From the IMG/VR virus record IMGVR_UViG_3300024322_000001: a stretch of 64,000 bases of DNA; one strand, 5' to 3'. A model generated the notes under the pieces. The model saw nothing but the letters and a program-made list of their open reading frames with translations. It did not search any database and was not told the DNA's origin. Both the position numbers and the translations under genes were made by a program. The DNA is from a virus. Lineage: Duplodnaviria; Caudoviricetes. The stretch's first letter is position 1. Each line of letters begins with the position of its first letter. Below, piece by piece: positions 34,272 through 55,589 of this stretch.

Positions 34272-34279
34272 TATAAATA
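34272..34279 (-). promoter_or_regulatory. Late-promoter-like TATTTATA upstream of neck gene
   Basis: Recurrent upstream octamer. Confidence 0.5.
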
Positions 34280-35066: not shown

Positions 35067-36650
35067 TTATACCTGAGCTAAATCAGATACGTAAATCTTA
35101 CCGTAGAATTCTGGACGAATCATCTTCTTAGCATAACGAGTCATCAATCCTTTACGTGGAGTAAAGGTATCTGGATCGTATACTAGAGGAGTCATCATTA
35201 ATGGTACGTAAGGAGCATATACTGCACCTGCTTCCAAGAACTGTCCACCTCTATAACCAGTTAAGATTACGTTTTCAGTCATGTAAGGGTTTTTGTATAC
35301 TTGGAATCTGTTCGCTAAAGAACCGATTTTCTGTACGCCCATTGCAAATTGAGCTTTATCACCGTCAGTTTGTGCAGCATATCCAGGAATTGATTCTAGG
35401 ATTGTTGCAACAGAAGGAGAACATACTACGAAATTTGCTCCACCTCTTAACGTTTTTTGGTGAATCTTGTTAGAAACTTTCTGTAGTTTAGTACCTAAAG
35501 TTTGGAACCACTGACCTTGAGTGTTGTAGAAATCAGAAGTACCTGTAGACCAAGCTGATCCATCCCATACTTTATTGTTTTCTGCAGACCACTTTTCAGT
35601 TGTAGCAGCACCTTGGATTAACATATCAAGTAATTCAAGATCGATCTCCATAGAGATGTACTCAGATAACATTGAAGTCAATTCTGCTTCAGCGTCAATT
35701 GAATGATAAGCATTCAAATCTTGAGCGAATTCTGGAGTCCACTGTGCTTTTAACTTTCTAGTCTTAGCAACAATCGCCTCAGAAGCTAACTGTACGTCGA
35801 TTTCTGGAATAGAAACTGAAGGACTTACATTGTTACCGTCTGCTCCAGAAGCTTCAAAGTCACCTCTTGTGTTATCACCTGGTTGTACGTGGTATTTGAT
35901 TTTCTTGTTACCTGAAGAACCAGCGTCTCCAGTTGCAACAACGAATACGATGTCTGAACCATCTACTCTTGTGTACTGTCCGTAAGAAGCAATACCGTCA
36001 AGTTGGAAAGCTCTTACACCTTCTAAATCTGCATCAGCAGGAGCTGCTAATGTTACAGTATCGAAAGCAGTTAAGTCTAAACTTGCATCGTATCCTACAT
36101 CTGCTAATGAAGCAGTTGCTTGTACAGTTGCAGAAATGTTTCCTGAAGTTTTCTCGTTAATAGAGTAACCGAACTGTCCAGCGCCGTAAAGACCACCAGC
36201 AACGTCAGTATCTACTGCCATTTTAGATGATGCTTCAGTTACGTTACCGTACATGTTGTCTCCGTCACCTCTACCGTTTACAGCAGAACCATATTTAAAG
36301 TCTAGATAAAATACTAGACCTGAAGGTAGGTTCATTGGTTGTACACTTACAAAGTCTTGCGCTACGATTTGAGCGAATACTTTTCTTACAAGTGGTAAAG
36401 CAACACCAGCCCACTGCTCACCTGCACCAGCTGTAAAGCCAGCACCTGTTCCAGAAGCACCTGTGTTGTTTGCTTCAGCTACGATTTGTTTTGCTTGGTT
36501 TTCAAGTACCATTGCCATGTTGTTTTTGGCTTTTTCGTCTTGAATTCCTTCCAACAAACCAGAAGCTGACCACTTATCAGCCAAACGCGCTGCGTCTGCC
36601 TGTAGGCTCTTAAAATTGTTAGAGCTTTCTAATAATTGGTTTAATTCCAT
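35067..36650 (-). CDS. gp23: Major capsid protein (gp23-like)
   Basis: VQPMNLPSGLVFYLDF, AKTRKLKAQWTPEFAQDLNAYH.IDAEAEL, YAPYVPL, TRYA. Confidence 0.95.
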   Translation of the reverse strand: MELNQLLESSNNFKSLQADAARLADKWSASGLLEGIQDEKAKNNMAMVLENQAKQIVAEANNTGASGTGAGFTAGAGEQWAGVALPLVRKVFAQIVAQDFVSVQPMNLPSGLVFYLDFKYGSAVNGRGDGDNMYGNVTEASSKMAVDTDVAGGLYGAGQFGYSINEKTSGNISATVQATASLADVGYDASLDLTAFDTVTLAAPADADLEGVRAFQLDGIASYGQYTRVDGSDIVFVVATGDAGSSGNKKIKYHVQPGDNTRGDFEASGADGNNVSPSVSIPEIDVQLASEAIVAKTRKLKAQWTPEFAQDLNAYHSIDAEAELTSMLSEYISMEIDLELLDMLIQGAATTEKWSAENNKVWDGSAWSTGTSDFYNTQGQWFQTLGTKLQKVSNKIHQKTLRGGANFVVCSPSVATILESIPGYAAQTDGDKAQFAMGVQKIGSLANRFQVYKNPYMTENVILTGYRGGQFLEAGAVYAPYVPLMMTPLVYDPDTFTPRKGLMTRYAKKMIRPEFYGKIYVSDLAQV

Positions 36651-36673: not shown

Positions 36674-37699
36674 TTATTTAATAATTCCAGCTAATTTTTG
36701 CATTCTCTGAACTGCAGAGGAAACTTCGCTAATCACTTCTGGCTTACTTGCTGTAGTTCCAGTTGCTTTGCTTGCTCTTCCTTTGTGTTCTTTGATAGTA
36801 GTCTCTTTTTTAATAACTACATTTTCGTTAACTGTTTCAAATACTAACTTAACTTCTTTAACTGTTTCAGCTTTATCGAAAGCAGCAATAATGTTTACTT
36901 TTTGTGCTTCGTTTAAGTTGTTAGCTTTGAAAATTTTGTTTACATAAAGTAACTTAGAGTTTAGTAAATTAACTTCGTTAAGTTCACTTCTCAAAGTTTC
37001 GATAGTTTCTAAAGCGCTTTTAAGTTCTTCTTTAGTTTCTTCATTAACAGGAGCTTCAATTGCAACTTCTTCCATTGCATCTTCTTCTTTCTTACCTTCT
37101 TCCATTTCTTCTTCGCTTTCGCCTTCTGAAATAGCATCAAGTTCTGCTAATAATTCGTCTAAGTCAATCTCTTCGTCACCTTCTTCGCCAGCCATAGGAT
37201 CGCCCTCGCCTGGTTCTTCTAATTCTGCTCCAGCGTCTAAATCAGCTCCAACTTCAGCTCCCATATCTTCAGCACCTCCGCCCATTTCTTGTGCGATAAT
37301 GTCTCTGATTAGGTCTTTGAAATCTTCAACTGAAAGATCTGATAGATCTTCGTCGTCTGCTGGCTCATCCTCAGATGCAACTTCTTCTTCTTCAGCCTCG
37401 TCTGCAGCTTCTTCTGCATCATCCTCAGCTTCTTCCATTGCTTCTTCTTCACTGTAAGATCCTTCTTCTACTTCTTCTTCGGCTACTTCAGTAGTTACTT
37501 CTTCTACATCATCTTCCATTTCGTTTACTACTTCTTCTTCAACAGATGAATCTTCCATCTCTTGTAGTTTAGCAGCTAACATATCTTTTAGATGAGGAGT
37601 CAAAGACTCTTCTAAAGCTTCCTTAGCGTTAGCAATAGCGGCTTCTCTTACAGACTTAGCTTCAGCAATAGCTTGCTTGAATAAATCTTTGTTTGCCAT
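36674..37699 (-). CDS. Prohead scaffolding/core protein (gp22-like role)
   Basis: Very acidic, coiled-coil, directly upstream of MCP, C-terminal RMQKLAGI. Confidence 0.75.
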   Translation of the reverse strand: MANKDLFKQAIAEAKSVREAAIANAKEALEESLTPHLKDMLAAKLQEMEDSSVEEEVVNEMEDDVEEVTTEVAEEEVEEGSYSEEEAMEEAEDDAEEAADEAEEEEVASEDEPADDEDLSDLSVEDFKDLIRDIIAQEMGGGAEDMGAEVGADLDAGAELEEPGEGDPMAGEEGDEEIDLDELLAELDAISEGESEEEMEEGKKEEDAMEEVAIEAPVNEETKEELKSALETIETLRSELNEVNLLNSKLLYVNKIFKANNLNEAQKVNIIAAFDKAETVKEVKLVFETVNENVVIKKETTIKEHKGRASKATGTTASKPEVISEVSSAVQRMQKLAGIIK

Positions 37700-37828: not shown

Positions 37829-38356
37829 TTATGCAGATGCTGCAACAGCACCAGCTATCTCTGCTCCGACTACTGCTATATCTCTTCCTTTTAGTGCTGC
37901 TTTTACTGCTCCTATAGTAGCGGTTGCTACATTAGCACCTCTAAGAGCTTGCATTGCTCCTATACCTGCTTTGATACCTAATCCTGCTAACATAGCTATA
38001 AATAATCCTTTAGCAACTAATTCTCTTTTCTTTTCATCTCTTACGAAAGGCTTAATAAAACCTGAGATAGCTTTAACTATGTTAACTTCATTATTATGTG
38101 CCCATTTATGAACTGCATCAGCTTTATCAGCTGCTTTATCTAAACCTAGTTTTTTAAGTCCTTTAGCAGCATACTTACCTAAAACGTCTAGTACTGTATT
38201 AGAAGCAAGTGCCCATCCTAATATACCTACTACAGATATAACTTCATTAACTTGTCCTTCTTCTCCTTGTTTACCAAACTCGGCTTCCATAGCTTTTGCT
38301 AATTCTTGACCTAATTGAGTTTCGTCGCTTTCTAATATTATGTGTGCTAATTTCAT
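37829..38356 (-). CDS. Hypothetical protein with MKLxxIILE leader and hydrophobic helices
   Basis: MKLAHIILE.S; VISVVGILGWALA and GLFIAMLAGLGI segments. Confidence 0.65.
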   Translation of the reverse strand: MKLAHIILESDETQLGQELAKAMEAEFGKQGEEGQVNEVISVVGILGWALASNTVLDVLGKYAAKGLKKLGLDKAADKADAVHKWAHNNEVNIVKAISGFIKPFVRDEKKRELVAKGLFIAMLAGLGIKAGIGAMQALRGANVATATIGAVKAALKGRDIAVVGAEIAGAVAASA

Positions 38357-38934
38357 TATGCTCTTAATATATCATTTATAATAGAATCTAAGTTTTGAAA
38401 TTTAGATACTTTTATTTTACCTTCTGATAATGCTACTGGGTTCATAAATGCACCGTGAGTAGAAGGATTTGAAACAAAATCCCAACATACTAGTTCGAAA
38501 TCGTCTTGCACTTCTAATGCACCTTCATTTGTTTGCTGTACTGATCCTGTACCTCTAGATGAGATACCGATTGTATGGCCTGCTTTTATGATTTCTTTTA
38601 CGATGTTTCCGGAAGGAGTATTTAATAACTCTACACGTCCCATAAGGTCGTTTCCTTTCCACCATAAGTCTTTTACTATGTGAGAGGCGTTCTTAAGAGA
38701 GACAATAGGAGACTCAGGGTGATCAAGTTCTCCGAATGCATTACCATTCTCTACAAACTCTTTTATGTACTTTGAGCATTCTCTCTCTAAAATAGGCTTA
38801 CTATATGTACGTCCATTTTGGTTTTTAGATACTGCTCTCTGCATAACCCCTTCGACTTCGTATACACCGGGTCTTTCCTTAGATTCTCTAAGAATTGATT
38901 TGAATGGTGTTACGTCTACTAATAATTGTGCCAT
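38356..38934 (-). CDS. gp21: Prohead maturation protease (gp21-like)
   Basis: NQNGRTY, GELDHP, GISSRGTGS, DFVSNPS. Confidence 0.92.
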   Translation of the reverse strand: MAQLLVDVTPFKSILRESKERPGVYEVEGVMQRAVSKNQNGRTYSKPILERECSKYIKEFVENGNAFGELDHPESPIVSLKNASHIVKDLWWKGNDLMGRVELLNTPSGNIVKEIIKAGHTIGISSRGTGSVQQTNEGALEVQDDFELVCWDFVSNPSTHGAFMNPVALSEGKIKVSKFQNLDSIINDILRA

Positions 38935-39373: not shown

Positions 39374-41683
39374 TTATAATGCTCCGTTGATTGTAGGTGC
39401 TGAAAATACTGTTTGTTTTTCTTCTTCTCCTAAAGGCCTTTCGCCTGAGTTATGAGCATCGATATCTGCTTGAGATATTACTCTAACTTTAGGTTGATCT
39501 AATCCTTTAGTAAACCCTCCTTTAACAGCAGGTCTTAAATCTTTATTGAATGCTTGTTCAATTGCGGGTGCTAGAAAGCCTCCTACTTTTAAACCTTCTT
39601 CATTTCTTATATCTCCTAGAGTGTTGTATACCTTTTGTATCTTACTTCTAGTTTTATCGTAATAAGATTCAATATCAGTTACAATATCCTGTAGAGCTAT
39701 AATAGCTTGTTTCATTCCTTCGTAGCCTCCGTATGTATCAGAGAATTCTGCTAATGCATTAGTTGCAGCTTCATTTATTACTCCTTCTTCTAATACTTTA
39801 AATATAATAGCTTTAATATTCTCTTTAACAGCTTCATCTTTACCCATCGCTTTTTTGATAGCTTTGTCTTTAGCTGCCATATAATCATCTTTATCTACAT
39901 CTCCATCTCCGTCATGATCTTTACCTTTAGCTTCTTCTAGGTTCTCAACCATAAATTGAGTTTCTAAATATTCTAATACGTCTTTTTTAGCAAACTCTAT
40001 CATTCCAGGTTCTGTCATTGGGCCCATTTTCCATTCTTCCCAAGCTTTAATTAACATATTAACACCTTTGTCAAATAAAGGTCCCATGCTCTCTACATAC
40101 CCTCCAGTTTCGTAATCGTTTTCAGTAACTACTTTACCTCCTTGAGATTTTCTGCGTCTACCTTCGTTTACTCCATTGTCGTCATCCCAAGGACCTTTCA
40201 TAATATCAACACCAATGTTGTAATGATCTCCTATGGCGTACATTACCTCTTCAGCTTCTTCTCTTTCTGAAGTATCGTTTTCTTCAGCTCTGTCTTGAAT
40301 AAGAGCAATAAACTCCTGTAGGCTACCTACTCTTTCGTTGATTACTTCTTCAACATCTGCTAAACCTTCATCATCGTCTAAATCTGCTGTCATATCAGTA
40401 TTAACTGGATCTGAACCTTCAAGTTGTTTTCTAACTTTAGAAACACCTTCGTTGAAACTACTTAAAGTCTTTTTAATAGCCGCTCTGAATTTCTTTAAGT
40501 TATCTAATACTTCTGCTTTATTACCTTCTTTAGCAGCATCGATTGCATAAGATAGATGACTACCTTCTGTGTGGTAATTAACATCTTCGAATGAATCAAA
40601 TAATGCTTGCATTTTATCTATCGGTGTGTTTAATCTAACTTTTAATCCTGCTTTGAGCATTCCTTCGTAATCAAAATCACTAGAAAACATTTGACCAAGC
40701 TTGTATAACTTGTCAATTGATTTCATATCTGTATCTTTACCGTATTTAGCAATTCTAGCCATTTCATCATCAGACATAGCTTCTTTAACAAACTTAGCTT
40801 TAGCAGCATCAAAATCTCCTTTATGGAGACTATCAACTACTTTTCTACCTAAAGTTTCTAATTGATCTGCATCTAGTGAATGAGGCTTATTAAATCCTTT
40901 TAAGTACCCTTGGCCTATTGCTCCATAATCTGCTGGGTCAATAACATCTTCTGCAGACTTAGCAACTTTTTCTTGCATATAATCAGCTCCTGATTCGTAA
41001 TTTACTGATAAAAACTCTTGAAAGTTATCCATTACGGCTTGCATGCCTTCATCAGAACCATCTGCTTGTTCTTCCCATTCTGGGTGAGTTTTATAAAAGT
41101 CGTTAATGATTTCATCATCAATTAAACTCTTACCGGTTTTAGGATTAGCATAATATTTTTTAATATAATCAGCTACTGAATCTGCTTGATCATATTCGTT
41201 TACTGGTTTAGTATGATTTTCTTTTAAATCAGCTTTCTTAAGTCCATTATGAACATCTACTTCATTACCTTTTTTAGGCTCAACCATTTGGTCGTGTTTA
41301 TCTACCTTAGAAGATTCTCCTGCTATTAAGTTAATATAGTGATTAGCATCTTTCTGTAAATTAGCAATTACTTTAATTCTAGCTTTCATGTAATCTTCTT
41401 TAGATACATTCCCAGTAGAGTCTATACCCTGTGCTTCCAGTTCTGCATCAATTCCTCTTTCAACTACATTTATAGGAAATTGATCTGCTAATACATCAAT
41501 ATCTTTCTTAACTTCTTTCTTTTCAAAAATAAGACTCTTTTGTTTAAGAATAGATACGGAATCTTTATACCCGTTCCATTGAGTGATGAATTGCGGATAT
41601 GCTTGTCTCATTTGACGGACAAATTCTGCTTCTTGAAGTTTACCTTCTAATACCGCATGATATTTTTGTGTTGCTGTTTTCAT
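39374..41683 (-). CDS. Large acidic modular head-region protein (putative polyprotein) with DxDxDG motif
   Basis: 769 aa; many [ILVM]-x-E sites; DHDGDGDVDKDD. Confidence 0.65.
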   Translation of the reverse strand: MKTATQKYHAVLEGKLQEAEFVRQMRQAYPQFITQWNGYKDSVSILKQKSLIFEKKEVKKDIDVLADQFPINVVERGIDAELEAQGIDSTGNVSKEDYMKARIKVIANLQKDANHYINLIAGESSKVDKHDQMVEPKKGNEVDVHNGLKKADLKENHTKPVNEYDQADSVADYIKKYYANPKTGKSLIDDEIINDFYKTHPEWEEQADGSDEGMQAVMDNFQEFLSVNYESGADYMQEKVAKSAEDVIDPADYGAIGQGYLKGFNKPHSLDADQLETLGRKVVDSLHKGDFDAAKAKFVKEAMSDDEMARIAKYGKDTDMKSIDKLYKLGQMFSSDFDYEGMLKAGLKVRLNTPIDKMQALFDSFEDVNYHTEGSHLSYAIDAAKEGNKAEVLDNLKKFRAAIKKTLSSFNEGVSKVRKQLEGSDPVNTDMTADLDDDEGLADVEEVINERVGSLQEFIALIQDRAEENDTSEREEAEEVMYAIGDHYNIGVDIMKGPWDDDNGVNEGRRRKSQGGKVVTENDYETGGYVESMGPLFDKGVNMLIKAWEEWKMGPMTEPGMIEFAKKDVLEYLETQFMVENLEEAKGKDHDGDGDVDKDDYMAAKDKAIKKAMGKDEAVKENIKAIIFKVLEEGVINEAATNALAEFSDTYGGYEGMKQAIIALQDIVTDIESYYDKTRSKIQKVYNTLGDIRNEEGLKVGGFLAPAIEQAFNKDLRPAVKGGFTKGLDQPKVRVISQADIDAHNSGERPLGEEEKQTVFSAPTINGAL

Positions 41684-49177: not shown

Positions 49178-49441
49178 TTAATCCTCAGGACCTTCGATCT
49201 TATCTCCTTTTCTAACTACAAGCCAATCTTTAATTCTATCATGGTACTTATCATCTACATCATCCAATGCAACTAATTTACCGTGTTTATCAGAATAGTA
49301 TAGATCTGCAGGGGCAATTTCGCCAGGGAAATAAAGTGTTATTCCTGGGGTTTCATTAAGTTCATCTTCATTTTCTACTGCTCTACTATTAGAGGTAAGT
49401 TTATTTTCAGTTAAAAATTTTCTTAAATCAAAGTTATTCAT
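49178..49441 (-). CDS. Putative capsid-internal protein, MNNF-leader family
   Basis: MNNFDLRKFLTENKLTSNSR leader. Confidence 0.7.
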   Translation of the reverse strand: MNNFDLRKFLTENKLTSNSRAVENEDELNETPGITLYFPGEIAPADLYYSDKHGKLVALDDVDDKYHDRIKDWLVVRKGDKIEGPED

Positions 49442-52465: not shown

Positions 52466-55400
52466 TTATTTATTTCTACAGTGAGACTTTCCTTTTAAAA
52501 AAGGTCTTTTACAGTTTCCTTTAACATGTACTCTACCGCATTTACCGCAGCATGTTGCTCCTTCAGTTAATTCGTCCTTGTTTACTAAGGTTAATTTAAA
52601 AGAGTCATGTAAGCCAGTTTTCCTTTTACCTGGTTTGCCGTTAATAACTCTAACATAAGCATCATGTCTTCCAACTTTTCCATCTACTCTTTGATAAATA
52701 TTACCGTGTTGATTTTTAACATAATCTCCAGGCATAATTTGACCTCCTTTAGCTTCGTTTATATCAGCATCTAATTCAAACTTCTTAAATTTATTTAAAT
52801 CGTTTAAACTTTTCAATTCAACTCTTTTGCCGTCATTATCTAATCCGTAAATATTACCATCATACTTACCCATTCCATCAGAACGTTTACCTGCTAATTT
52901 TTGTTTTAATTCAGCTCCTGCTCTACGTTTAGATACTGATGAAGTCATTCCTAGGTCTTGTCTAGTAGCTTCTTCCATATGCCTCTTTCCTAGTCCAGGT
53001 AAGTTTCTTAGATCTTGTACATATTGATCTGTTTTAACTAAAATAGTACCTAAATTATGACCCTCATCATTTTCATCTACTTTCATTAAGGTAATTTCTG
53101 ATACGCCAGGATTAAAGTCTGGATCTTTATCTTTAAAGTTACTATTGTAGTATTGTTTTTGATGCATTCTATATTTTTGACCTTCATGCTCTAAATTATG
53201 ATATTGCATGTGAACAAACATTGGTGCGTATTGACCCATTCTAGCTTTGATACCACTCTTATCATGTTTCTTTAAAGCTTCAAATGCATCGTTTTCACTA
53301 GCTACCCCTTTAGGTAATAGATCTGCAAATAATTGTTTACCGAACATATCAGGCGCTCTTTTGTTAGCATCGTCGATTACTTCTGAACCTTTAAATCTAT
53401 CATCAGTAAATTCTTTTAATACTGATTCGTTAGTATATACTTCTCCGTCTTCGATTTCATATCCTTCTTCTTCTAATCTGTCTACAAAGCCTCCTAGAGT
53501 GACATCGTATCTATTACCTGAATACATGTTATTAAAAGCACCGTAAGCATCTAATCTTGATAGCTCGTTAGGAAATGTATGTCTAACTACTTCTCTTGCT
53601 TCTTCTCCTTTAGACTCGATTTCATCGATTAAATCTCTTAACTCTCTAATTGCATCTTGAACTTCGTCTTCAGTAACTTCTGTTAGTTCCTGACTATGGT
53701 GTGTACCGGCTACTGCTCTTTCTAATTCAGCTTCTAGTTTCTTTTTAGTTATAGTAAGAGATCTAAGTTGGTCAACAACTGATTTATCACCTGCTTTGTA
53801 TTTCTTAGCAAGATCTTTCATTATACTAATTACCTTACCGTAAGCTGTTTGAATCTTAGCAGCGGATGCTTCGTCCATATTTTTACGTCTAGGTATTTGA
53901 GTTGACATATCCTTTAAGTCACCTTGTACCGATTGCATTGCTCTAGCTAATGTTGAAAACTCTTCTGCAGGAACATGAATATAATCCCCACCGTAAGTAA
54001 TCTGTACCATTAATCCTCTTTTACCGCCAGAGAATCTTTTTATATTGATACCATTTTTATCATATAATTCAGTACCTTCATTCATTGCATGCTCTAAAGC
54101 TAGTTTATCAATAAGAGGTTGTTTTTCTTCTGAATCTAAATAATGGTAAGCTGCAGACATATAGTCTCTAGCTAAGATTAATTTCTTTTGCCACCAGTTA
54201 GGAAAATCTACTTCTCCATCTACTTGATCATATTGAGCTAATTTCTTTGCTAATTTAGCAGCATAAGTAGCTGTTTCAAAAGCAGATGACTTTAACATAC
54301 TAGGCTCATCATCTTGATGTCCTATGTCTAAATCTTCTCCTAAAGGTCTTCCGTCATCATCATATGCTACTCCATGATCTTCTTCATCATCTTTCTGTTC
54401 TTGATCAGGATCGTAGTTTTCATCCATATCAGCAGATGAATCTACTACTGTGATATCGTTAGCTCGTAAATCCATTACTACATCGTACATAAATGCACTT
54501 GGATCTTCATCTGGTTCTTGGTAGAATTCTGGGTTTTCTTTTCCTTCTGGATCGTCGTACATATCGTCAAATCCATATTCGTGTCTAAATACAAAGTATA
54601 TAATTACATTTCCAGCTCCGTCATTGTCAACAACCTCCATTTTAACATAAGTTGGATCTACATTTTGATCTAAGATAGACATAGCTTTCTTATAATCTCC
54701 TCTAGATACTTTTAAGTAGTGGTGATCGTCTCCTTCTCCTTCTTTAACTCCTACTTTATCTCTTTTGGCAAATACCTTTTCTTTATCTTTATCAGATAAT
54801 TTACTGAAGCTTACACCATCGAATTCACGATGTGCAATTAAATCTAATCTATCTTCTTCTTCGTGGCTTAATTTTCTGCCTTTGAAATTATACTCTTCAG
54901 ATAATGATTTAAAGTGTTTTAATAGTTCATTTGCTAGTACATCCCTGTTAATGATTGCCTCTCCCGAAGGTTTAACACCTACCTCTACTAATTCTTTATC
55001 GAAGGAAAAATCTACTAAATGTAATGCATCATCTATAATATAGAAAGAGAATTCATCCATATTACCTTCTGCTTTATACTCTACGTGTATATCAAAGCTG
55101 TTTGGCTCTATATGATGAGCTTTCATTGATTCTAACTCATCTCCACCTTTCTTTAACGCTATAGCTAAAGATTTACCTACTTCTTTTGCTATCTTCTTAG
55201 TTTCGTTTTGATCAAACTCTACTCCGTTATTTTTCTTAAAAAGACTATTTTCTTTAACTTCTTCTCCTGCTGCTGTCTTTATCTTATCGACATCATCGGA
55301 AGATTTAAGTGCAGTAACTTCGTCATCTGATAGTTTAGCTAATGTAGGTTTACCTCCTTTTGGTGTGAGTAGGTAGGATTCTTCTTCTTTAAGTATTTTT

Positions 55401-55552
55401 TTATATTTCTTGATGCTTTCTTTAAGTACTTTAATTACTTTGTTTACATCTTTAGAATCGCCTTTGTCCTTAGTAGACACTCCTTTGGTTTGTATTAACT
55501 CTAAAGTCACTTGACATTTGTTAAGGCGCTTTTTTATTTCCTCGTAGTTCAT
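52466..55552 (-). CDS. Large modular head-region protein (putative polyprotein)
   Basis: 1028 aa; about 13 modules bounded by [ILVM]-x-E; Cys/His-rich basic tail. Confidence 0.65.
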   Translation of the reverse strand: MNYEEIKKRLNKCQVTLELIQTKGVSTKDKGDSKDVNKVIKVLKESIKKYKKILKEEESYLLTPKGGKPTLAKLSDDEVTALKSSDDVDKIKTAAGEEVKENSLFKKNNGVEFDQNETKKIAKEVGKSLAIALKKGGDELESMKAHHIEPNSFDIHVEYKAEGNMDEFSFYIIDDALHLVDFSFDKELVEVGVKPSGEAIINRDVLANELLKHFKSLSEEYNFKGRKLSHEEEDRLDLIAHREFDGVSFSKLSDKDKEKVFAKRDKVGVKEGEGDDHHYLKVSRGDYKKAMSILDQNVDPTYVKMEVVDNDGAGNVIIYFVFRHEYGFDDMYDDPEGKENPEFYQEPDEDPSAFMYDVVMDLRANDITVVDSSADMDENYDPDQEQKDDEEDHGVAYDDDGRPLGEDLDIGHQDDEPSMLKSSAFETATYAAKLAKKLAQYDQVDGEVDFPNWWQKKLILARDYMSAAYHYLDSEEKQPLIDKLALEHAMNEGTELYDKNGINIKRFSGGKRGLMVQITYGGDYIHVPAEEFSTLARAMQSVQGDLKDMSTQIPRRKNMDEASAAKIQTAYGKVISIMKDLAKKYKAGDKSVVDQLRSLTITKKKLEAELERAVAGTHHSQELTEVTEDEVQDAIRELRDLIDEIESKGEEAREVVRHTFPNELSRLDAYGAFNNMYSGNRYDVTLGGFVDRLEEEGYEIEDGEVYTNESVLKEFTDDRFKGSEVIDDANKRAPDMFGKQLFADLLPKGVASENDAFEALKKHDKSGIKARMGQYAPMFVHMQYHNLEHEGQKYRMHQKQYYNSNFKDKDPDFNPGVSEITLMKVDENDEGHNLGTILVKTDQYVQDLRNLPGLGKRHMEEATRQDLGMTSSVSKRRAGAELKQKLAGKRSDGMGKYDGNIYGLDNDGKRVELKSLNDLNKFKKFELDADINEAKGGQIMPGDYVKNQHGNIYQRVDGKVGRHDAYVRVINGKPGKRKTGLHDSFKLTLVNKDELTEGATCCGKCGRVHVKGNCKRPFLKGKSHCRNK

Positions 55553-55581: not shown

Positions 55582-55589
55582 TATAAATA
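55582..55589 (-). promoter_or_regulatory. Late-promoter-like TATTTATA upstream of the 1028-aa gene
   Basis: Recurrent upstream octamer. Confidence 0.5.

Follow-up and report, generated by a model that had tools for sequence, protein, structure and literature searches.

This report deals with P0001, an open reading frame (ORF) of 1028 amino acids (aa) in a 64,000-nucleotide (nt) stretch of tailed-phage DNA (IMG/VR record IMGVR_UViG_3300024322_000001), and the whole of this stretch is referred to below as the window. In the original prediction, made from the DNA letters without database searches, the ORF was read as a polyprotein of small modules that are separated by [ILVM]-x-E sites and end in a basic Cys/His peptide. 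The ORF does exist and lies on the minus strand (55552..52466); its frame stays open across 3087 nt, and an identical copy of its protein is present on 19 contigs. All of the listed [ILVM]-x-E sites are present, with the P1 Glu at residues 101, 219, 271, 378, 406, 492, 561, 625, 628, 714, 861, 933, and 997, and the basic Cys/His peptide was found at the C-terminus as described (GATCCGKCGRVHVKGNCKRPFLKGKSHCRNK). The modular architecture of P0001 and the logic of its putative cut sites are strongly supported by the sequence comparisons and structure predictions presented here, and the original interpretation is supported in part. The features of the ORF are listed below in coordinates of the window, where pLDDT denotes the predicted local distance difference test score, pI the isoelectric point, and a slash a proposed cut after Glu.

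52466..55552, minus strand: whole putative polyprotein ORF P0001; 1028 aa, ATG start, stop codon included
55385..55552, minus strand: residues 1-56, N-terminal extension; Lys-rich, two helices; conserved sites VLKE/S (45) and ILKE/E (56); proposed long targeting leader
55250..55384, minus strand: residues 57-101, rest of module A; ends EVKE/N; junction in low-confidence linker 96-108
54896..55249, minus strand: module B, residues 102-219; alpha+beta domain, pLDDT >90; ends SLSE/E
54740..54895, minus strand: module C, residues 220-271; two helices; ends GVKE/G
54419..54739, minus strand: module D, residues 272-378; acidic alpha/beta domain, pI 4.1; ends DMDE/N
54335..54418, minus strand: module E, residues 379-406; 28-aa disordered acidic spacer; ends PLGE/D
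54077..54334, minus strand: module F, residues 407-492; helical hairpin; ends AMNE/G; 54% identity to the phage immuto counterpart
53870..54076, minus strand: module G, residues 493-561; four strands and a helix; ends NMDE/A
53669..53869, minus strand: module H, residues 562-628; basic helical hairpin; ends in tandem sites ELTE/VTE/D
53411..53668, minus strand: module I, residues 629-714; acidic, helical; ends VLKE/F; possible extra cut RLEE/E (695) from de novo segmentation
52970..53410, minus strand: module J, residues 715-861; 17-kDa alpha/beta domain; ends HMEE/A; most conserved module
52754..52969, minus strand: module K, residues 862-933; basic, pI 9.3; ends DINE/A
52562..52753, minus strand: module L, residues 934-997; basic small beta module, pI 9.8; ends ELTE/G
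52469..52561, minus strand: module M, residues 998-1028; basic Cys/His peptide, pI 10.1

Masses of 3.2-17 kDa and pI values of 4.1-10.1 are predicted for the products, the final three of which are basic. The Cys/His pattern of the last 31 residues is conserved, and module M is probably a zinc knuckle. In module J, 25 residues are invariant over 74 sequences, down to 45% identity; these include H67, Q69, Q86, N89, N91, and the motif YAPMFVH.QYH, and this conservation suggests that the invariant cluster binds a ligand or metal and is more than a structural core. In some stand-alone genes (L039, L044, and L070), the 28-aa acidic piece that constitutes module E (..YDPDQ.QKDDEE.HGVAYDD.GRPLGE) also separates leader from body, and it behaves as a portable spacer with a site at either end.

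Placement of the motif and predicted folds

The motif [ILVM]xE occurs 22 times in P0001, while 19.9 +/- 3.8 occurrences were expected from 2000 shuffles. The view that the motifs are a signal in themselves was therefore wrong as stated, since chance accounts for how many there are; the signal lies in where they are placed. Because the count matches chance, a positional test was required, and P0001 was compared by BLAST with 257 relatives, which gave 1007 internal breakpoints. These breakpoints have peaks at residues 218, 266, 378, 402, 488, 555, 626, 707, 862, 933, and 995, and minor peaks at 909, 957, and 1018. As had been predicted, they coincide with the xE sites: 63% are located within 6 aa of the 13 listed sites. 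By the same measure, random positions reach 16%, randomly drawn Glu residues 22%, and the nine motif sites that had not been chosen 5%. When 13 of the 22 motifs were drawn at random, only 0.1% of the subsets equaled this 63%. The list of sites was thus a non-random choice, all 13 of which are present, but it overlooked the conserved N-terminal sites 45 (VLKE/S) and 56 (ILKE/E), the first of which keeps its Glu in 97% of the relatives. Since modules A and B always travel together, breakpoints are uninformative on site 101, which lies in a linker and has Glu in 80% of the relatives.

An all-versus-all comparison of 258 proteins, which is independent of the predicted choice of sites, was also carried out. 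The ends of high-scoring segment pairs accumulate on the P1 Glu of [ILVM]xE (3.9 per site against a background of about 0.4) and their starts on P3, and no pile-up of breakpoints was found in this comparison at the control motifs [ILVM]xD, [ILVM]xK, and [ILVM]xQ or at xE preceded by a non-hydrophobic residue. When cuts were defined de novo from the breakpoint peaks of the same comparison, 66% of 2282 had a motif within 4 aa, against a background of 19%. The de novo segmentation of P0001 (1-219, 220-271, 272-378, 379-406, 407-492, 493-561, 562-628, 629-695, 715-861, 862-933, 934-997, and 998-1028) reproduces the predicted modules almost exactly, and it adds a cut at residue 695.

These results bear on the explanation that there is no real feature at P0001, that is, that an ordinary large protein happens to contain such motifs, or that small ORFs were joined by an error of assembly or gene calling. 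The motif count, which equals the shuffle expectation, is what this explanation would lead one to expect; the extreme positional statistics, together with the identical protein on 19 contigs, the frame open over 3087 nt, and the more than 1300 clusters of relatives described in the next section, speak against it, and we regard it as refuted.

The structure of the whole P0001 was predicted by AlphaFold2 with an alignment (A3) of 63 largely colinear relatives. The prediction consists of independent domains on flexible linkers, as had been anticipated: the mean pLDDT of the whole chain is 70 and its predicted template modelling score (pTM) is 0.30, while module J alone has a pLDDT of 92.4 and a pTM of 0.86. 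A pTM of 0.30 in combination with confident local pLDDT values points to domains without a fixed mutual arrangement. Ten of the 12 junctions are in segments with pLDDT<50, which occupy 19% of the chain (binomial p = 3e-6), and the remaining two (219 and 492) are at helix ends where the confidence dips. Among the nine motif sites outside the predicted choice, eight are within helices or strands and the ninth (56) is in a linker.

Searches of Pfam and PHROGs with P0001 gave no match. Pfam searches at E<=0.001 found no family in any of 43 diverse members of the P0001 family (approximately 45,000 residues), including the signature domains of the polyvalent proteins that are discussed later. For module J, profile searches against PDB sequences gave nothing below E 0.79, and there was no usable match in the protein atlas; in fold searches, the best values were E 0.012 in Foldseek against PDB (Sm-like, beta half, weak), Z 4.6 in VIA-align, and a TM score of <=0.44 in the ESM atlas. 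The fold search with the whole chain gave no PDB match and only generic helical-hairpin matches for residues 555-621, and BFVD gave only uncharacterised phage proteins. This absence of fold matches does not show that the module folds are new. The role of mini-effectors in anti-defence or host takeover, which the original prediction gave to the modules, is a putative one, and none of the modules resembles an entry of Pfam or PHROGs, a PDB sequence, or a known fold.

Relatives, stand-alone genes and the exchange of modules

A word-indexed search gave 640 relatives of P0001, and an exhaustive search gave 1365 clusters at 50% identity, 244 of which are at <1e-30. The expectation that the segments occur in other orders among relatives was borne out, because the relatives are not colinear: modules are reordered or duplicated in 84 of 256, and alternative orders such as ABCD-JK-H, ABED-JK-F-LM, and JKLKLM were found. 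Modules A and B are N-terminal in nearly every relative that carries them, and the N-terminal 220 residues are conserved across relatives. Module content is hypervariable between near-identical phages.

The motif was also examined at joints where the upstream neighbor differs from that in P0001. It still directly precedes module J in 69 of 70 such cases, module K in 30 of 31, and module G in 16 of 17, and the upstream sequences are diverse. In independent IMG/VR contigs, the motif precedes J in 52 of 52 distinct ORFs, in which J starts anywhere from residue 11 to residue 993 (e.g., 11, 21, 85, 212, and 993). The junction logo has L45/V22/I16/M16 at P3 and Glu at P1, and P1' is Gly or Ala in 37%. 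Among the sampled proteins, 76 module clusters with at least 3 members and 29 with at least 10 members were obtained, and their median length is 79 aa.

Segments of P0001 had also been expected to match small stand-alone ORFs, and complete module J genes of 153-171 aa were indeed found. Their leaders are MIKLK[DNH]ILKE/ or MKKS.LK.IIKEE..VLKE/, and their bodies begin at the same [FYLM]TD as inside the polyproteins. On a 1.4-kb Tara contig (L001, 132-1302), three consecutive small genes have the same 10-aa leader, MIKLKNIL[KL]E, and unrelated bodies. The stand-alone J of this contig is a full ORF, and the next two unrelated genes share the leader MIKLKNILLE/; the product of the middle gene is J-like but shorter, and part of its sequence is unresolved (X). 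Altogether, 21 distinct small leader-bearing ORFs, representing at least 6 module types, have counterparts in the interior of large family proteins, and stand-alone forms are known for J and for at least 5 further module types. Two genes in the window itself belong here, namely a small cassette gene and the ORF adjoining P0001.

49178..49441, minus strand: 87-aa cassette gene; leader MNNFDLRKFLTE/...ELNE/; body 77% identical to residues 737-791 of polyprotein P0132
50174..52462, minus strand: 762-aa ORF adjoining P0001; leader MHKLEKLILE/S; modules in common with 144 sampled relatives of P0001

Residues 218-421 of the 762-aa ORF are 83% identical to P0021, beginning after PVQE/A, and judged by its modules this ORF is a putative second polyprotein of the same system. 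The modules behave, as far as sequence comparison can tell, as a shared pool of at least 76 families that would move among polyproteins, neighboring genes, and single genes having their own putatively cleavable leader.

The evidence from breakpoints and stand-alone genes also bears on a second explanation, in which P0001 is an uncut multidomain virion or accessory protein with domains arranged as beads on a string in the style of polyvalent proteins, and the motif at the joints is a linker or domain-capping feature or a by-product of recombination. Mosaic phage proteins with 2-15 domains are common, and N4 vRNAP is packaged unprocessed (PMC5512222). A motif count at chance and an unclear depletion of the motif within modules would suit an uncut chain as well, and breakpoints cluster at boundaries in any mosaic family. 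However, the same three-residue motif ends the short leaders that are common to unrelated small genes, and J starts at the identical residue in stand-alone genes and in polyproteins, which a mere linker leaves unexplained. The signal is, moreover, specific to Glu, with nothing at Asp, Lys, or Gln, and so matches the rule of the T4 protease; a stretch of three codons, the middle one free to vary, is too short for recombination to be guided by it; and no signature domain of polyvalent proteins was found in the 43 members. We consider an uncut chain unlikely.

Head genes, protease and the cultured relative

P0001 is located within a long run of minus-strand genes. In transcription order, an exonuclease, an ATPase-like gene, and small genes are 5' of it, and the 762-aa ORF, four small genes, and two mid-size ORFs follow directly after it. 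Then come the large terminase, a T4-type portal, and ORFs of 284, 76, and 769 aa, and after these the Peptidase_S77 prohead protease, acidic proteins of 175 and 341 aa, a Gp23-type major capsid protein, and a head-tail adaptor. Because of this order and these gene types (terminase, T4-type portal, Peptidase_S77, and Gp23-type capsid), the head module of the phage is regarded as T4-like. The position of the P0001-type gene upstream of terminase, portal, and protease is fixed in relatives and in phage immuto. The head genes most relevant to processing are as follows.

38356..38934, minus strand: prohead protease, presumed processing enzyme; Pfam Peptidase_S77 PF03420, 1.3e-35
35067..36650, minus strand: Gp23-type major capsid protein; aligns with T4 gp23; candidate maturation sites MVLE/N (50) and IVAE/A (59)
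36674..37699, minus strand: 341-aa very acidic protein between protease and capsid genes; 24 [ILVM]xE motifs

The genome thus encodes a gp21-type protease, as the original prediction had required, which is of the S77 family and has its His and Ser in place. Residues 21-173 of this protease align with T4 gp21 (PDB 5jbl, 1.3e-24), and its His72 and Ser125 correspond to two Ala residues of the crystallised 5jbl chain. We take these two positions to be the catalytic H85 and S140 of gp21, mutated in the crystal. By alignment with T4 gp23, the beginning of mature gp23* corresponds to about residue 55 of the major capsid protein, between MVLE/N (50) and IVAE/A (59). The 341-aa acidic protein is a probable scaffold, gp22-like by its position and composition. 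In the capsid-targeting sequence (CTS) of T4, targeting needs residues 4 and 7 and processing needs residues 8 and 10 and is blocked when position 10 is Asp (PMC9026906). The finding that breakpoints give no signal at xD agrees with this block by Asp.

An octamer, TATAAATA on the plus strand and TATTTATA on the coding minus strand, is present at 55582-55589, 30 nt upstream of P0001. It is also found at 34272, 42782, 44699, 58058, 59590, and other positions in the window, and the genes for the portal, the 284-aa protein, and the adaptor each have it 15-18 nt upstream. There are 21 occurrences on the plus strand and 2 on the minus strand, and this total has no significance by itself (23 vs 14 +/- 4). 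Sixteen of the 21 plus-strand copies are 5-70 nt upstream of the starts of minus-strand ORFs, including those of the polyprotein, the portal, and the adaptor. The octamer may be a late-promoter-like element, and its sharing by P0001 and head genes gives a weak hint of co-regulation.

The sole named relative of P0001 is a hypothetical protein of the cultured Flavobacterium phage vB_FspM_immuto (genus Immutovirus). It has 841 aa and is encoded by the gene immuto35A_191 (L006 11947-14472), which is at the same genomic position as P0001. The protein contains two copies of module F, and its Cys/His knuckle, of the module M type, is internal and followed by FKNE/A. Its C-terminal tail is rich in Gly, Ala, and Glu and resembles the one noted in the 762-aa ORF of the window. 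Its leader, MKKLIRIVE/A (9 aa), aligns with residues 47-56 of P0001 and its cut site with site 56, and from this alignment P0001 seems to carry an internal copy of the short leader behind a 46-residue helical extension. Since modules A and B always come first, residues 1-219 are read as a putative address for the prohead. When a complex of residues 1-219 with the 341-aa scaffold candidate was predicted, the score was 0.00, which gives no answer and speaks neither for nor against binding. No paper describing phage immuto itself was found, and a term search of one paper on Baltic Sea Flavobacterium phages, in which immuto is not mentioned, gave neither a virion proteome nor mass spectrometry (PMC7077304).

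The location of P0001 also raises a third explanation, in which the protein is cut by the protease as an assembly protein of the core or scaffold type, its pieces being discarded or structural, like T4 gp22, gp67, and gp68 or the propeptides of phiKZ and SPN3US. The gene is in the head-morphogenesis block, its N-terminal 220 residues show the conservation of a structural part, its composition as a whole is acidic, and the clearance of propeptides by multiple cuts is documented in giant phages (PMC10052503, PMC9026906). Yet P0001, acidic overall and in the head block though it is, appears to be built of folded alpha/beta and beta domains, and its pieces are predicted to be confidently folded domains of 6-17 kDa, not short peptides. 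The hypervariable module content is easier to reconcile with accessory cargo than with an essential scaffold, a different protein, the very acidic one of 341 aa that adjoins the protease, is a scaffold candidate, and several modules are found as optional small leader-tagged genes, as are the T4 internal proteins. An assembly role of this kind is, in our judgment, quite unlikely.

Proposed maturation and comparison with known systems

We propose that P0001 is probably a polyprotein that is packaged in the head and cut at maturation, in an uncultured marine T4-like myovirus related to phage immuto. The gene is upstream of the head genes and shares the intergenic octamer with them, and late co-expression is assumed. 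The conserved residues 1-219 would take the chain into the assembling prohead, which is the job of the 10-aa CTS in T4 internal proteins, and the gp21-type serine protease of the phage would then cut after Glu in exposed [L/V/I/M]-x-E linkers. This cutting would free approximately 13-15 folded pieces of 3-17 kDa, acidic as well as basic, with the zinc-knuckle-like peptide as the last. The pieces would remain with the DNA and most likely accompany it into the host. Packaging, cleavage, retention, ejection, and a function of the pieces in the host are thus what we infer for this system.

Several points weigh against a packaged and cleaved P0001. One is the number of [ILVM]xE motifs in the chain, which is that of a shuffled sequence. 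The depletion of the motif inside modules is unclear: its observed ratio is 0.97, as compared with 1.11-1.34 for xD, xK, xQ, and xN, while other Glu spacings give 0.89-0.90, so that selection against internal cutting has no independent sign. Domain boundaries of any mosaic protein draw breakpoints, and the breakpoint signal by itself therefore proves modules, not cleavage. At its very N-terminus, P0001 has no short T4-style leader and carries a helical extension of 45-56 aa instead, and it is from position and from the alignment with immuto that a targeting role of residues 1-219 is suggested.

We also lean, with less assurance, toward a broader view, in which T4-like phages of marine Bacteroidota would run a plug-and-play system of capsid cargo. 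At least 76 modules would be swapped between leader-tagged genes and polyproteins, and in the latter one address would load the string and the head protease would dice it. If the cuts occur, the T4 rule of one leader for one internal protein extends to one address for many cargo proteins, which would explain how many small proteins can be packed and diversified at little regulatory cost. If true, this would be a case of a tailed phage that uses the polyprotein strategy, and the module pool would be a large store of small proteins, possibly host-directed; precise mature boundaries would follow for at least 76 uncharacterised families of small phage proteins, which ocean metagenomes commonly contain, and the system would be a natural model for packing several proteins together into phage heads. 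The module families are candidates for early-acting functions that are host-directed or associated with DNA.

The nearest known system is that of the T4 internal proteins with their CTS and gp21. These proteins, IPI, IPII, IPIII, and Alt, are connected with the same protease family (S77) and the same capsid family (Gp23) as in the present phage, and they follow a pattern in which a generic cleavable address is placed on variable cargo (PMC3012670, PMC9026906). The cut rule of T4, with a hydrophobic P3, Glu at P1, and Asp not accepted, matches the junctions found here. As in T4, short leaders ending in [IL]xE are on small, unrelated, and fast-evolving genes by the head genes, and the cargo repertoire is hypervariable in both cases. 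However, each cargo protein of T4 has its own gene, one leader, and one N-terminal cut (Alt also has a C-terminal one), whereas up to approximately 13-15 modules are chained here with a site at each joint. The T4 address is of 10 aa, whereas the address here is apparently a conserved region of 56-219 aa, and P0001 has no sequence similarity to any T4 internal protein.

An address as long as residues 1-219 would be comparable to the N-terminal targeting propeptides of 111-130 aa in the ejection proteins of SPN3US (PMC7411985). In head proteins of phiKZ and SPN3US, several x-x-Glu cuts are made by a gp21-related protease (gp175, gp245) (PMC7411985, PMC10052503, PMC9026906). The multiple cuts in phiKZ and SPN3US are inside a propeptide that is discarded and leave one mature protein, whereas the putative cuts in P0001 are between folded modules. 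The cut motif of giant phages is reportedly A/S/G-x-E, as given by Thomas and colleagues in 2012. Module shuffling between the junctions of giant-phage head proteins was not found in PMC7411985, PMC10052503, or PMC9026906.

Polyvalent proteins are mosaic, rearranged, and linked to virion genes, and their co-delivery with DNA has been proposed, as has the processing of domains for some of them (Iyer et al., 2017, PMC5512222). The P0001 family is like them in having many mosaic domains, rearrangement among relatives, and a context of virion genes. However, polyvalent proteins are defined by conflict domains (MPTase, ART, ParB-like, and BECR RNases, among others) and by proposed self-processing with their own peptidase domain, and no such domain was found by Pfam in the 43 members of the P0001 family; its junctions would fit a head protease acting in trans, unlike the self-processing of polyvalent proteins. 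The same logic of one ORF, a viral protease, and short sites in flexible linkers is seen in the polyproteins of eukaryotic RNA viruses and retroviruses (picornavirus 3C and retroviral PR), and retroviral cutting also takes place inside the assembled particle, as is proposed here. There is no homology to these systems, and the products of P0001 would differ from theirs in being accessory capsid cargo of a double-stranded DNA phage, as opposed to core proteins of replication or structure, and in being combinatorially shuffled.

The original prediction had also presented the strategy as one not described at this scale for tailed phages. In the full-text literature, with most subscription journals outside the search, no paper was found on polyprotein cargo or on strings of mature cargo freed by a prohead protease in tailed phages, and to this extent the claim of novelty stands; it has to be tempered, as the multi-cut propeptides of giant phages and the polyvalent virion proteins are kin ideas that were already known.

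Two further ORFs in the window share segments with members of the P0001 family.

39374..41683, minus strand: 769-aa ORF between portal and protease; module (residues 325-407) in common with family member P0193
56847-57689, minus strand: 280-aa ORF; residues 91-140 (50 aa) 96% identical to an internal segment of P0048; no obvious cleavable leader

The 769-aa ORF contains 25 [ILVM]xE motifs, where 15.9 are expected, and proteins of similar size (753 and 703 aa) occupy its position in relatives; this ORF may be a third member of the same system. In P0048, the segment that matches the 280-aa ORF sits just upstream of module J.

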